NCBI RefSeq assembly: GCF_003334335.1
Contig: NZ_QOWQ01000015.1
Strand: one strand, 5' to 3'
Length of the DNA stretch: 64,000 nucleotides
Source of the DNA: Escherichia coli
GTDB lineage: Bacteria > Pseudomonadota > Gammaproteobacteria > Enterobacterales > Enterobacteriaceae
A program made the translations under genes and the position numbers. The notes beneath the pieces are model-generated. The model had not been told where the DNA came from, ran no database searches, and worked only from the letters and a program-made list of their open reading frames with translations. This document shows, in pieces, positions 3,476 to 10,556 of this stretch (position 1 is the first letter of the stretch; the number at the start of each line of letters is the position of its first letter).

Positions 3476-4906
3476 ATGATACGTAAGTCAGCTACAGGTG
3501 TTATTGTTGCGTTAGCCGTAATCTGGGGTGGTGGCACATGGTACACAGGTACGCAAATTCAGCCTGGTATCGAAAAATTTATTAAAGATTTTAACGATGC
3601 TAAAAAGAAAGGTGAACATGCCTACGATATGACGTTAAGTTATCAAAATTTTGACAAAGGCTTTTTTAATTCCCGTTTTCAAATGCAAATGACATTCGAT
3701 AACGGTGCACCCGATCTCAATATCAAGCCAGGCCAGAAAGTTGTATTTGATGTGGATGTTGAGCACGGTCCGTTGCCCATCACAATGTTAATGCATGGTA
3801 ATGTCATCCCAGCACTGGCAGCGGCAAAAGTGAACTTAGTGAATAATGAACTGACACAACCGCTATTTATCGCCGCGAAAAATAAATCGCCCGTGGAAGC
3901 GACATTGCGATTCGCGTTTGGTGGCTCATTCTCTACGACATTAGATGTTGCCCCTGCAGAGTATGGAAAGTTTTCTTTTGGTGAGGGCCAGTTTACTTTT
4001 AATGGTGATGGTAGTTCATTGTCTAACCTGGATATTGAAGGCAAAGTCGAAGATATTGTTCTGCAATTATCACCAATGAACAAAGTAACGGCAAAAAGTT
4101 TTACCATTGATTCTCTGGCGCGATTAGAAGAAAAGAAATTTCCGGTTGGTGAAAGCGAGTCGAAATTTAATCAGATTAACATTATCAATCACGGGGAAGA
4201 CGTTGCCCAAATCGATGCTTTCGTTGCAAAAACCAGGCTGGATCGCGTTAAAGACAAAGATTATATCAATGTCAATCTCACCTACGAACTTGATAAGTTA
4301 ACAAAAGGGAATCAGCAACTCGGTAGTGGTGAGTGGTCATTGATTGCTGAATCTATTGATCCCTCAGCAGTGCGCCAATTTATCATCCAGTATAACATTG
4401 CGATGCAGAAGCAGCTTGCTGCACACCCTGAGTTAGCAAACGATGAAGTTGCTCTGCAAGAAGTGAATGCTGCATTGTTCAAAGAGTATTTACCGTTATT
4501 ACAAAAAAGTGAGCCGACCATTAAACAACCGGTAAGATGGAAGAACGCACTCGGCGAACTAAATGCCAATCTGGATATCAGTATTGCCGACCCAGCCAAA
4601 TCTTCATCATCCACAAACAAAGATATCAAATCGCTCAATTTTGATGTGAAGTTACCGCTTAATGTCGTCACAGAAACCGCAAAACAGCTTAATTTATCTG
4701 AAGGAATGGATGCGGAAAAAGCGCAAAAGCAGGCTGATAAACAAATCAGCGGGATGATGACATTAGGTCAGATGTTTCAGTTAATCACGATTGACAACAA
4801 TACCGCCTCGCTGCAGCTGCGTTATACACCGGGTAAAGTTGTTTTTAACGGACAGGAGATGAGCGAAGAAGAATTTATGTCTCGTGCCGGACGTTTTGTT
4901 CATTAA
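3476..4906 (+). CDS. yihF: DUF945-family putative GTP-binding/outer-membrane-associated protein YihF
   Basis: Long ORF; start placed at ATG 3476 (MIRKSATGVIV..., 476 aa) rather than ORF-track 3434; N-terminal hydrophobic segment; recognised by recall. Confidence 0.85.
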   Translation: MIRKSATGVIVALAVIWGGGTWYTGTQIQPGIEKFIKDFNDAKKKGEHAYDMTLSYQNFDKGFFNSRFQMQMTFDNGAPDLNIKPGQKVVFDVDVEHGPLPITMLMHGNVIPALAAAKVNLVNNELTQPLFIAAKNKSPVEATLRFAFGGSFSTTLDVAPAEYGKFSFGEGQFTFNGDGSSLSNLDIEGKVEDIVLQLSPMNKVTAKSFTIDSLARLEEKKFPVGESESKFNQINIINHGEDVAQIDAFVAKTRLDRVKDKDYINVNLTYELDKLTKGNQQLGSGEWSLIAESIDPSAVRQFIIQYNIAMQKQLAAHPELANDEVALQEVNAALFKEYLPLLQKSEPTIKQPVRWKNALGELNANLDISIADPAKSSSSTNKDIKSLNFDVKLPLNVVTETAKQLNLSEGMDAEKAQKQADKQISGMMTLGQMFQLITIDNNTASLQLRYTPGKVVFNGQEMSEEEFMSRAGRFVH

Positions 4907-4912
4907 AATACT

Positions 4913-4941
4913 CACTCGCCTCTGCTCATTCAGAGGCGAGT
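4913..4941. terminator. Bidirectional terminator hairpin between convergent yihF and yihG
   Basis: Inverted repeat actcgcctctg / cagaggcgagt with 7-nt loop located between two convergent stop codons. Confidence 0.6.
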
Positions 4942-4946
4942 AAAAC

Positions 4947-5879
4947 TTACTTATTCTGACGCTGTGATGACATGAGAGACGTCAGAAGCCGGTCTTTTTC
5001 CTGCCACAATGAGTTCAGCCATTGCTGAAAATGGCGCTTAAAGCTTTTGTCATTGATGTAGTCGCCATGTAACTCATCGGCAATAGGCTGTAAATCCACA
5101 TGTACGACAATCCGCGTCAGTTTACCGCTTAACATATCGAAGAACGGCTGACGGTTATTGTCCGGATAACACAGCGTAACATTAAGCAGTTTATCGAATT
5201 GTTTACCCAGTACATTTAGCGCCATCGCAATGCCTGCCGCCTTTGGTGGCAACAAGTTTTGAAAAGTGGAGTGGGTTTGCTGATGTTTTTCTTGCGTGAA
5301 ACGGGAGCCTTCAACGAAATTGACAATGGTGGTGGGATGCAGGCGAAACTTTTCACAAGAACGCCGAGTGGTTTCAACATCTTTACCACGTCGCTCCGGA
5401 TGACGTAATAAATAAGCGCGGGAATAACGCTTCATAAACGGCATATCCAGCGACCAGCACGCCAGGCCAAGAAATGGCACCCAGGCCAGCTGTTGCTTGA
5501 GGAAATATTTATTCATCGGAATGTGCTTACGAAACAGCACGCACAGTACGACAATATCTGCCCAACTACGGTGGTTACAAATAAGCAGATACCAGTTCTT
5601 CTTACTTAACCCTTCCAGCCCGTGAACTTCCCATTGAAGGTGTGGGTTCAGATGCAGTAATACCGCCAGACCTTCACACCAGCAATACATCATAAAATCA
5701 CAAAAACGCGAAACCTTTCGCCAAATGACTGGCACAGGTAGCAATAGTTTTACAATCCCGGCAATGATGATCGGGACGGAACAAAAAATAGTGACCAAAA
5801 TGGTCAATACGATACTCAGCAAAAGGGTTATCGCAGCGAGTATTCTCGTCATAATGAATTTATTCAAAAGGTTAGCCAT
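4947..5879 (-). CDS. yihG: PlsC-family acyltransferase YihG (1-acyl-sn-glycerol-3-phosphate acyltransferase homolog)
   Basis: ORF 4947..5903; start placed at internal ATG 5879 ([10 protein letters not shown]..., 310 aa) by recall of annotated length; N-terminal TM segment; acyltransferase NHRSWAD (HX4D) motif. Confidence 0.85.
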
Positions 5880-6109
5880 AGACAGTGCGCTAAAGAAGCG
5901 CAAGGCGCAGATTTTAGCAGAAAACGACCCAAATAACGGATGATCCTTAAGGAGAAAAATAATTCATATCTATCCACATTAGAAAAAATCCCATTATCTC
6001 AATTATTAGGGATGGATTTATTTTTAACTGCATGAAAAACAAAGACAAACATCATGCTGTAAAAAGCATGATAATAAATTAAAAGCGATGTAAATAATTT
6101 ATGCACAAA

Positions 6110-6118
6110 GTTATCCAC
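6110..6118 (+). promoter_or_regulatory. Consensus DnaA box (TTATCCACA) in polA promoter region
   Basis: Exact 9-mer TTATCCACA at 6110-6118; a second 8/9 match (cTATCCACA) at 5970-5978; DnaA control of polA is established knowledge. Confidence 0.6.
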
Positions 6119-6242
6119 ATGACGATTTGCGAGCGATCCAGAAGATCTACAAAAGATTTTCACGAAAAGCGGTGAAAAACTCATGTTTTCATCCTGTCTG
6201 TGGCATCCTTTACCCATAATCTGATAAACAGGCACGGACATT

Positions 6243-9029
6243 ATGGTTCAGATCCCCCAAAATCCACTTATCCTTGTAGATGGTTCATCTTATCTTTATC
6301 GCGCATATCACGCGTTTCCCCCGCTGACTAACAGCGCAGGCGAGCCGACCGGTGCGATGTATGGTGTCCTCAACATGCTGCGCAGTCTGATCATGCAATA
6401 TAAACCGACGCATGCAGCGGTGGTCTTTGACGCCAAGGGAAAAACCTTTCGTGATGAACTGTTTGAACATTACAAATCACATCGCCCGCCAATGCCGGAC
6501 GATCTGCGTGCACAAATCGAACCCTTGCACGCGATGGTTAAAGCGATGGGACTGCCGCTGCTGGCGGTTTCTGGCGTAGAAGCGGACGACGTTATCGGTA
6601 CTCTGGCGCGCGAAGCCGAAAAAGCCGGGCGTCCGGTGCTGATCAGCACTGGCGATAAAGATATGGCGCAGCTGGTGACGCCAAATATTACGCTTATCAA
6701 TACCATGACGAATACCATCCTCGGACCGGAAGAGGTGGTGAATAAGTACGGCGTGCCGCCAGAACTGATCATCGATTTCCTGGCGCTGATGGGTGACTCC
6801 TCTGATAACATTCCTGGCGTACCGGGCGTCGGTGAAAAAACCGCGCAGGCATTGCTGCAAGGTCTTGGCGGACTGGATACGCTGTATGCCGAGCCAGAAA
6901 AAATTGCTGGGTTGAGCTTCCGTGGCGCGAAAACAATGGCAGCGAAGCTCGAGCAAAACAAAGAAGTTGCTTATCTCTCATACCAGCTGGCGACGATTAA
7001 AACCGACGTTGAACTGGAGCTGACCTGTGAACAACTGGAAGTGCAGCAACCGGCAGCGGAAGAGTTGTTGGGGCTGTTCAAAAAGTATGAGTTCAAACGC
7101 TGGACTGCTGATGTCGAAGCGGGCAAATGGTTACAGGCCAAAGGGGCAAAACCAGCCGCGAAGCCACAGGAAACCAGTGTTGCAGACGAAGCACCAGAAG
7201 TGACGGCAACGGTGATTTCTTATGACAACTACGTCACCATCCTTGATGAAGAAACACTGAAAGCGTGGATTGCGAAGCTGGAAAAAGCGCCGGTATTTGC
7301 ATTTGATACCGAAACCGACAGCCTTGATAACATCTCTGCTAACCTGGTCGGGCTTTCTTTTGCTATCGAGCCAGGCGTAGCGGCATATATTCCGGTTGCT
7401 CATGATTATCTTGATGCGCCCGATCAAATCTCTCGCGAGCGTGCACTCGAGTTGCTAAAACCGCTGCTGGAAGATGAAAAGGCGCTGAAGGTCGGGCAAA
7501 ACCTGAAATACGATCGCGGTATTCTGGCGAACTACGGCATTGAACTGCGTGGGATTGCGTTTGATACCATGCTGGAGTCCTACATTCTCAATAGCGTTGC
7601 CGGGCGTCACGATATGGACAGCCTCGCGGAACGTTGGTTGAAGCACAAAACCATCACTTTTGAAGAGATTGCTGGTAAAGGCAAAAATCAACTGACCTTT
7701 AACCAGATTGCCCTCGAAGAAGCCGGACGTTACGCCGCCGAAGATGCAGATGTCACCTTGCAGTTGCATCTGAAAATGTGGCCGGATCTGCAAAAACACA
7801 AAGGGCCGTTGAACGTCTTCGAGAATATCGAAATGCCGCTGGTGCCGGTGCTTTCACGCATTGAACGTAACGGTGTGAAGATCGATCCGAAAGTGCTGCA
7901 CAATCATTCTGAAGAGCTCACCCTTCGTCTGGCTGAGCTGGAAAAGAAAGCGCATGAAATTGCAGGTGAGGAATTTAACCTTTCTTCCACCAAGCAGTTA
8001 CAAACCATTCTCTTTGAAAAACAGGGCATTAAACCGCTGAAGAAAACGCCGGGTGGCGCGCCGTCAACGTCGGAAGAGGTACTGGAAGAACTGGCGCTGG
8101 ACTATCCGTTGCCAAAAGTGATTCTGGAGTATCGTGGTCTGGCGAAGCTGAAATCGACCTACACCGACAAGCTGCCGCTGATGATCAACCCGAAAACCGG
8201 GCGTGTGCATACCTCTTATCACCAGGCAGTAACTGCAACGGGACGTTTATCGTCAACCGATCCTAACCTGCAAAACATTCCGGTGCGTAACGAAGAAGGT
8301 CGTCGTATCCGCCAGGCGTTTATTGCGCCAGAGGATTATGTGATTGTCTCAGCGGACTACTCGCAGATTGAACTGCGCATTATGGCGCATCTTTCGCGTG
8401 ACAAAGGCTTGCTGACCGCATTCGCGGAAGGAAAAGATATCCACCGGGCAACGGCGGCAGAAGTGTTTGGTTTGCCACTGGAAACCGTCACCAGCGAGCA
8501 ACGCCGTAGCGCGAAAGCGATCAACTTTGGTCTGATTTATGGCATGAGTGCTTTCGGTCTGGCGCGGCAATTGAACATTCCACGTAAAGAAGCGCAGAAG
8601 TACATGGACCTTTACTTCGAACGCTACCCTGGCGTGCTGGAGTATATGGAACGCACCCGTGCTCAGGCGAAAGAGCAGGGCTACGTTGAAACGCTGGACG
8701 GACGCCGTCTGTATCTGCCGGATATCAAATCCAGCAATGGTGCTCGTCGTGCAGCGGCTGAACGTGCAGCCATTAACGCGCCAATGCAGGGAACCGCCGC
8801 CGACATTATCAAACGGGCGATGATTGCCGTTGATGCGTGGTTACAGGCTGAGCAACCGCGTGTACGTATGATCATGCAGGTACACGATGAACTGGTATTT
8901 GAAGTTCATAAAGATGATGTTGATGCCGTCGCGAAGCAGATTCATCAACTGATGGAAAACTGTACCCGTCTGGATGTGCCGTTGCTGGTGGAAGTGGGGA
9001 GTGGCGAAAACTGGGATCAGGCGCACTAA
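6243..9029 (+). CDS. polA: DNA polymerase I
   Basis: 928-aa ORF; 5'-3' exonuclease N-terminal domain, 3'-5' exonuclease (FDTETDSL), polymerase motifs [27 protein letters not shown]; recognised by recall. Confidence 0.98.
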
Positions 9030-9175
9030 GATTCGCCTGAACATGCCTTTTTTCGTAAGTAAGCAACATAAGCTGTCACGTTTTGTGATGGCTATTAGAA
9101 ATTCCTATGCAACAACTGAAAAAAAATTACAAAAAGTGCTTTCTGAACTGAACAAAAAAGAGTAAAGTTAGTCGC

Positions 9176-9284
9176 GTAGGGTACAGAGGTAAGATGTTCT
9201 ATCTTTCAGACCTTTTACTTCACGTAATCGGATTTGGCTGAATATTTTAGCCGCCCCAGTCAGTAATGACTGGGGCGTTTTTTA
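9176..9284 (+). ncRNA. spf: Spot 42 small regulatory RNA
   Basis: Sequence GTAGGGTACAGAGGTAAGATGTTCTATCTTTCAGACC...GCCGCCCCAGTCAGTAATGACTGGGGCGTTTTTTA matches Spot 42 from recall; ends in an intrinsic terminator. Confidence 0.92.
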
Positions 9285-10312: not shown

Positions 10313-10556
10313 ATAGAGCGAGGACGCTAACAGGAACAATGACTCAGGATGAGGGTCAGGAGCGCCAGGAGGCGAAGACAGAGGATTGTCAGGAAGACAA
10401 ACGTCCGGAGACGTAATTAAACGGAAATGGAATCAACACGGATTGTTCCGGCTAAAGGAAAAACAGGGTGTGTTGGCGGCCTGCAAGGATTGTAAGACCC
10501 GTTAAGGGTTATGAGTCAGGAAAAAAGGCGACAGAGTAATCTGTCGCCTTTTTTCT
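10313..10556 (+). ncRNA. csrC: CsrC, CsrA-sequestering small RNA
   Basis: About 245 nt with at least 13 GGA/AGGA motifs on the + strand and a 3' hairpin aggcgacagagtaatctgtcgcct plus T-run (10525-10554); matches CsrC by recall; ends are approximate. Confidence 0.85.

Follow-up and report, generated by a model that had tools for sequence, protein, structure and literature searches.

Sites of DnaA binding on the E. coli chromosome have been mapped by ChIP-seq, and the map published in 2024 contains 16 bound regions, one of which is designated polA (PMC11317965). The polA peak is placed at 4,046,831, reaches 123-fold over control and is printed with the double box tTTATGCACAaagTTATCCACAt; the coverage of 123x at polA compares with 124x at purH and with 174–218x at oriC, datA and DARS2 (PMC11317965). 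In the same work only 13 of the 32 exact DnaA boxes in the genome were found to be ChIP-bound, and at purH the mutation of either box, or the addition of 1 bp to the 2–3 bp spacer, was found to abolish DnaA binding (PMC11317965). The mechanism of DnaA activation was termed “poorly understood” by these authors (PMC11317965). Stimulation of polA by DnaA is credited to Quinones et al. (1997, Mol Microbiol 23:1193) in papers that cite this study (three in all), with activation in stationary phase specified by a 2021 review; the size and conditions of the effect of DnaA on polA transcription rest on that 1997 work, taken here in the form in which it is cited. A 2025 proteome study, in which the DnaA-ATP level or titration was varied, reported that deletion of datA, DARS1 and DARS2 left most proteins of the DnaA regulon at wild-type levels, and did not single out polA. 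A 2025 paper on titration holds that the promoter boxes of regulated genes may serve titration too.

The polA site falls within the 64,000-nucleotide stretch of E. coli DNA analyzed here (the window). Window positions 4777–6577 are the same as positions 4045500–4047300 of the MG1655 chromosome (NC_000913.3) at 1801 of 1801 bases, covering the region from yihG to polA, so that an NC_000913.3 coordinate equals the window position plus 4,040,723. With this conversion, tTTATGCACAaagTTATCCACAt is identical to window positions 6098–6120, and the ChIP-seq peak at 4,046,831 corresponds to window position 6108, between the two boxes of the pair described below. Table 1 of the ChIP-seq study states NC_000913.2; its oriC peaks (3,925,806 and 3,925,943) fall in the oriC of NC_000913.3 (3,925,744–3,925,975), and because both the oriC and the polA values fit the latter version, the table is taken to be in NC_000913.3 coordinates (PMC11317965). 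Conversion from the stated NC_000913.2 would misplace the peaks by ~2 kb.

A segment of 451 bases around the site was matched in all 5426 complete E. coli genomes, with the flanks annotated as yihG and polA. The gene under regulation, polA (DNA polymerase I), is encoded on the + strand at 6243–9029, with its ATG at 6243, and the divergent neighbor yihG (acyltransferase) on the − strand at 4947–5879 (NC_000913.3 4045670–4046602), with its start codon at 5879. The spacer between them (5880–6242, 363 bp) has a G+C content of 35%, falling to 27% over 5940–6125, compared with 51% for the window; this bears out the original prediction, made from the DNA letters, that the boxes lie in an AT-rich region upstream of polA. 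The site is ~121 kb from oriC. A search against Rfam gave no RNA family in the yihG-polA spacer. Elsewhere in the window the search identified Spot 42 RNA at 9166–9284 (122.8 bits), shortly after polA, and the beginning of CsrC at 10313–10500 (184.4 bits), both as expected for the E. coli chromosome here.

Two DnaA boxes lie side by side on the + strand of the spacer. The exact consensus box, TTATCCACA, occupies 6111–6119, and a weaker left box, TTATGCACA, occupies 6099–6107, 3 bp upstream of the exact box. With respect to the R-type definition (TTATNCACA or TTWTNCACA), the 6111–6119 box is an exact match and the 6099–6107 box fits TTWTNCACA. Together, with the spacer AAG and both members on the + strand, they form a double box as defined in the 2024 ChIP-seq study, i.e. 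two boxes in the same orientation separated by 2 or 3 bp. The original prediction was right on the presence of the exact box, which it placed one base too early, at 6110–6118, and it did not include the partner box TTATGCACA, which is what makes the site significant. Taken alone, the exact 9-mer is within chance, with 0.54 copies expected per window and at least one copy in 38 of 100 shuffles. The composite TTWTNCACA-N3-TTWTNCACA, however, matches the window only at this pair, with 0 mismatches, and gains no second match at a tolerance of 2 mismatches (0.18 expected). Sequences differing from TTATCCACA at no more than one position number 26 in the window (16 on the + strand and 10 on the − strand), a twofold excess over the 12.4 ± 3.5 expected, with none of the 100 shuffles reaching 26. 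DnaA boxes are reported to be enriched around the origin (2025 paper), and the window-wide excess of near-consensus boxes may reflect this origin-proximal enrichment.

Conservation was assessed over 80 gammaproteobacterial polA loci (of more than 594 found), one genome per species, chosen as coding for close relatives of the PolA N-terminus. Three alignments of the DNA upstream of polA, comprising 23 Enterobacteriaceae, the Enterobacterales, and a set with Vibrionaceae (70 distinct loci in total), reveal conserved islands in otherwise unalignable DNA: the upstream box, a TAA-N5-TGA-WW motif, the double box, and the element TGGCATNCT near the start codon. The boxes are invariant islands in all three alignments. 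In 64 of the 80 loci the exact box precedes polA in the same orientation as the gene, mostly 100–190 bp from the ATG, and it is found in Vibrionaceae, in several Alteromonas-like marine genera, and in all sampled Enterobacterales families apart from individual exceptions, i.e. Budvicia (which has TTATCAACA), a Pantoea insect symbiont, and one Enterobacterales MAG, the latter two being divergent genomes. It is absent upstream of polA in all 11 of the Pasteurellaceae loci. Within the Enterobacteriaceae, the left box always ends in CACA and is always followed by the spacer AAG or AAC, and its first five positions differ between species, so that the conserved form of the pair is five variable bases followed by CACA-AAG/C-TTATCCACA. 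The spacer length of the pair is kept in every locus with an exact box. Of the 5426 complete E. coli genomes, 5385 retain the 50 bp around the pair at an identity of 99% or more. An inverted DnaA-box-like sequence, TTATTTACA (2 mismatches), abuts the left box on the − strand at 6089–6097 in a head-to-head arrangement found in E. coli only; as a DARS-like core box it was rejected, since it is not conserved among Enterobacteriaceae.

These data bear directly on whether the matches are functionless chance occurrences in AT-rich intergenic DNA, a reading to which we give practically no credence. Although a lone exact 9-mer is readily produced by shuffling, one-mismatch matches are common, and most exact boxes in the genome (all but 13 of 32) are not ChIP-bound, the pair is unique in the window at up to 2 mismatches, the boxes stand unchanged in unalignable DNA, both among 23 Enterobacteriaceae and between orders, and DnaA occupancy in vivo is strong; conservation and the published ChIP-seq data already refute chance.

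A further box, CTATCCACA, lies at 5970–5978 on the + strand, exactly where an eight-of-nine match had been predicted. It agrees with TTATCCACA at 8 of 9 positions and fails TTWTNCACA at position 1. Its TATCCACA is invariant in the 23 Enterobacteriaceae and nearly so across Enterobacterales (as [A/C]TATCCACA), with TTTTCCACA or TTGTCCACA at the same place in Vibrionaceae, and the 50 bp around it are at least 99% identical in 5142 of the 5426 complete E. coli genomes. The distance from the upstream box to the exact box is 141–143 bp in 57 of 66 loci, and 145–148 bp in the Alteromonas-like group. Where the distance is exactly 142 bp, as in 27 genera, the intervening 121 bp are 31.8% identical in register between genera, compared with 29.0% when shuffled; as judged from these alignments, the inter-box DNA is constrained in length and not in sequence. 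The 5970–5978 box, ~140 bp from the exact box, is not its partner but a third, auxiliary site. It probably contributes as a sub-consensus box; the resolution of the DnaA ChIP-seq data is unable to separate it from the pair.

The upstream box is only 91 bp from the start codon of yihG, which begins at 5879 on the opposite strand, raising the question of whether the boxes, or at least this one, regulate yihG instead of or besides polA. YihG has been linked to replication control: according to a 2020 paper citing Babu et al. (2017), YihG overproduction suppresses hyperinitiation, presumably via DnaA-ATP levels, which would make a feedback loop conceivable in E. coli. Separately, the DnaA boxes of the shared spacer, if carried on the yihG clones that suppress hyperinitiation, could themselves titrate DnaA. 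The comparative data make yihG a very unlikely target, however. The boxes remain with polA despite changes of neighbor (a YihG-like gene in Serratia, and different genes in Photobacterium and Arsukibacterium), which argues against yihG as the main target. The upstream box and its spacing persist without a yihG neighbor in the latter two genera and also in several Erwiniaceae and Yersiniaceae, in which the box is preceded by a terminator-like hairpin belonging to a co-directional gene. The center of the ChIP peak is on the polA-proximal pair.

Between the upstream and double boxes, 55–56 bp from the former, is a predicted architectural-protein site with an IHF-like core, TAACTGCATGAAA (6025–6037), which matches 7 of 9 positions of YAANNNNTTGATW, the reverse complement of WATCAANNNNTTR. 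Its conserved positions are TAA-N5-TGA-WW, and the DNA flanking it is A/T-rich. The mean score of the core by genus at the 55/56 bp offset is 7.55 out of 9, compared with 4.22 ± 0.40 (maximum 5.21) at other offsets. The core reaches 9/9 at the same offset in 9 of 38 genera, with Dickeya, Photorhabdus, Providencia, Moellerella, Edwardsiella, Aliivibrio, and Photobacterium among the genera with a perfect core, and 7/9 in E. coli; in the family logo, two positions of the consensus are no more specific than W. Three genome-wide IHF studies and their accessible supplements make no mention of IHF occupancy at polA or yihG, and we infer from the core that IHF would be the protein bound at 6025–6037. 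Between the core and the double box there is also a terminator-like hairpin on the − strand (6050–6073), consisting of a 9-bp stem followed by a T-rich run, with an RNA fold of −10.1 kcal/mol (z = −4.2). The hairpin is probably not part of the conserved module, as its stem is already broken in E. albertii.

The double box is directly followed by two GATC (Dam) sites, at 6135–6138 and 6144–6147, which are 9 bp apart. Across 47 genera, the 40 bp after the exact box contain 56 GATC sites, compared with 6.0 expected, typically in pairs 9–11 bp apart; in Vibrionaceae, 3–5 GATC sites instead occupy the interval from the upstream box to the double box. In E. coli, the second site of the pair lies inside AGATCT (6143–6148), the published ATP-DnaA hexamer; AGATCT was rejected as a conserved feature, because GATC alone is kept across genera. 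In sequence terms, the sites at 6135 and 6144 have the form of a SeqA target, with at least two GATC approximately one helical turn apart, and the GATC pattern suggests Dam/SeqA control of the region after replication.

A scan for sigma-70 consensus promoters returned no promoter in 5850–6300, so that any polA promoter here would be non-canonical and its assignment rests on conservation. The element TGGCATCCT (6201–6209, + strand), an instance of the motif TGGCATNCT, is predicted to be an extended −10 of the form TG-n-CATCCT. The motif fits an extended −10 in having TG, one base, and then CATNCT with the key A and the final T. The 46 genera retained were chosen for having the motif, and all show T-G-G-C-A-T-n-C-T; of the 70 distinct aligned loci, 4 do not have it. 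The A-tract AAAA (6176–6179) and a weak −35-like TCATGT (6181–6186), 17 bp upstream of the −10-like hexamer, both on the + strand, are candidate parts of the same promoter; counted from TGGCAT, A predominates at positions −25 to −22, and 40 of 46 genera have T at position −20. Transcription is predicted to start near 6215–6218, placing the boxes at about −101, −113, and −242. A literature search found no mapped polA transcription start, the promoters of a Photorhabdus study being predicted only. A second −10 candidate, CATAAT (6215–6220), lies beside TGGCATCCT and is conserved within Enterobacteriaceae only, whereas TGGCATCCT is conserved across orders. A sigma-54 promoter (TGGCAC-N5-TTGCW) was considered for TGGCAT and rejected: positions 12–15 after TGG carry 0.26–0.51 bits over 46 genera, and E. 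coli has ACCCA at the place of the sigma-54 −12 element.

The Pasteurellaceae provide a natural comparison. Their 11 polA loci (L051, L052, L055, L058, L064–L066, L068, L073, L075, and L080) have neither the boxes nor TGGCATNCT, and have a canonical −10, CGCTATAATGC (TATAAT), ~60 bp upstream of polA. By this comparison of upstream sequences the whole polA regulatory module is replaced in Pasteurellaceae, and the boxes and the weak promoter have been lost together, as expected if the boxes serve the promoter. The gap between the exact box and TGGCAT falls into classes of 81–83, 70–74, 62–63, 49, and 38 bp, and shortenings of ~10 bp recur in six separate lineages (Siccibacter, Pectobacteriaceae, Rahnella, Rosenbergiella, Moellerella, and Edwardsiella). 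These gap classes suggest that the helical face of the boxes relative to the promoter matters. A Rayleigh analysis at 10.5 bp gives p = 0.013 on distinct gap values, but loses significance (p = 0.15) on nine class representatives, with shared ancestry taken out, so that dependence on the helical face is suggestive only; the p-values for helical phase over all loci are set aside because they are inflated by shared ancestry.

What lies upstream of polA here is the high-affinity DnaA site already known from E. coli, and that DnaA binds it in vivo can be held with very high confidence. The binding of DnaA to this fragment and the DnaA-dependent control of polA expression, both put forward in the original prediction, are supported, the former by the ChIP-seq peak at window position 6108 (123x; PMC11317965) and the latter by Quinones et al. 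(1997) as cited; since the peak and the stimulation of polA are published, the prediction is correct and was already known. The DnaA boxes upstream of polA thus serve as a positive control for the ability of a sequence scan to pick out genuine regulatory sites.

Activation of polA by DnaA is, in our judgment, likely to be the main function of the site. DnaA binds the double box at 6099–6119, where the exact box would act as anchor and the weaker left box would be filled cooperatively, and the sub-consensus box at 5970–5978 would probably add to the complex. The bound DnaA would stimulate the weak, non-canonical polA promoter, with its TGGCATCCT element and poor −35, and the supply of DNA polymerase I would thereby be tied to the state of the replication initiator. 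IHF may bend the DNA at 6025–6037, and SeqA may transiently occupy the GATC pair after fork passage. Against activation stands the position of the boxes: with centers ~101 and ~113 bp ahead of the predicted start, they are more distant than would be usual for an activator working by simple contact. The empty consensus promoter scan and the largely unchanged DnaA regulon in the 2025 proteome study, where polA was not singled out, also count against it. The locus combines a strongly occupied site with a spacer constrained in length, a candidate site of bending, and a weak promoter of the extended −10-like type, and so offers handles on DnaA activation. Because it lies ~121 kb from oriC and binds DnaA strongly, the site necessarily also counts among the origin-proximal boxes that titrate DnaA.

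An alternative is that the region serves first of all for DnaA handling, in the manner of datA, the left half of oriC, or DARS2. A bend at 6025–6037, probably made by IHF, would join the DnaA molecules on the upstream box and the double box into one higher-order complex, with titration or a change of nucleotide state being primary and the effect on polA secondary. In its favor, occupancy at polA is in the range of that at purH and about half of that at oriC, datA, and DARS2; the spacing of the boxes is held at 141–143 bp in 57 of 66 loci despite a near-random intervening sequence; the IHF-like core is at a fixed offset; and datA has the same parts, i.e. a double box, an IHF site, and further boxes. 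A contact between R1-DnaA and R5-DnaA across the IHF bend has been published for oriC, and the 2025 titration paper allows for titration by the promoter boxes of regulated genes. We nevertheless consider this alternative unlikely. The core of E. coli K-12 matches at only 7/9 and the genome-wide IHF studies yielded no record of IHF at polA, the order of the parts is unlike that of datA, all three good boxes are on the + strand, and the accessible literature contains no report of DnaA-ATP hydrolysis or nucleotide exchange by the polA locus, nor of a shift in initiation timing on its deletion. The boxes also co-vary with the type of polA promoter and keep an apparently quantized distance to it, which points to transcription.

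We also advance tentatively a more elaborate architecture, which we regard as possible rather than probable. In this proposal, the DNA upstream of polA is more than a promoter with DnaA boxes and constitutes a conserved three-part module, consisting of a sub-consensus box, an IHF-type bend site at +55 bp, and a double box at 141–143 bp, together with GATC sites, and would form a bent DnaA-IHF-DnaA complex as at oriC and datA, giving cell-cycle-coupled polA expression and possibly a previously unrecognized form of DnaA handling (titration or nucleotide state). The length of the module is fixed across Enterobacterales and Vibrionaceae while the intervening sequence is randomized. By analogy with datA and oriC, a bent complex of this type at polA is possible; were it true, the co-assembly of IHF and DnaA seen at oriC, datA, and DARS2 would extend to polA. 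In the accessible literature we found no description of the 5970–5978 box, the ~142 bp spacing, the IHF-like core, the GATC pair, or the TGGCATNCT element, nor of the joint loss of boxes and promoter. What may be new is the layout itself, with several parts held at a rigid spacing in many related bacteria.

With respect to the published polA site (Quinones et al., 1997, as cited; PMC11317965), the pair described here is the same locus and the same bases, without any difference. The purH, nrdA, mioC, and nrdD sites resemble polA in having two same-strand boxes 2–3 bp apart, the weaker one 5′ of a consensus or near-consensus box, bound in vivo. In MG1655, purH differs from polA in having no extra box within one mismatch in 1 kb and no IHF consensus of at least 8/9 near the pair, whereas polA has both an extra box and a core at fixed distances. 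Neither purH nor nrdD shows the box-core-box layout of polA, and at datA the order of the parts is different.

The datA site is like polA in carrying a double box, TTGTAAACAgagTTATCCACA, an IHF site, TAACCTATTGATA, in the same orientation as the putative one of polA, and further boxes, with boxes flanking the actual or putative bend site at 55–100 bp in both. At datA, TAACCTATTGATA is 65 bp from the double box and the further boxes are ~97 bp beyond. Both sites are non-coding, in the origin half of the chromosome and strongly ChIP-bound. The order of parts is single box, core, and double box at polA, compared with double box, IHF site, and a pair that includes an inverted box at datA. The polA site also differs from datA in its position just ahead of a predicted promoter, at an apparently phased distance. 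Of the features that characterize datA and the DARS sites, boxes flanking an IHF site may be represented at polA, where the IHF site is putative and the order unlike that of datA. Oppositely oriented core boxes are not: the three good boxes of polA are all on the + strand and the only inverted match is TTATTTACA, whereas datA has an oppositely oriented box (box 4). The DARS core likewise contains an inverted DnaA box.

The left half of oriC (R1, IHF site, R5M) is similar to polA with respect to a high-affinity and a weaker box placed across an IHF bend, which is putative at polA, and to the presence of GATC clusters. The GATC clusters of oriC are subject to SeqA sequestration. The polA site is unlike oriC in having no unwinding element and no oppositely oriented arrays, in its longer distances, and in its output, which is presumably transcription and not unwinding. 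The dnaA promoter region, which is sequestered by SeqA after replication, resembles polA in that a replication gene is preceded by DnaA boxes with a tight cluster of GATC sites next to them. At dnaA, DnaA acts as a repressor through boxes that lie between the two promoters of the gene, whereas at polA it is reported, in the papers citing the original work, to activate from ~100 bp upstream.
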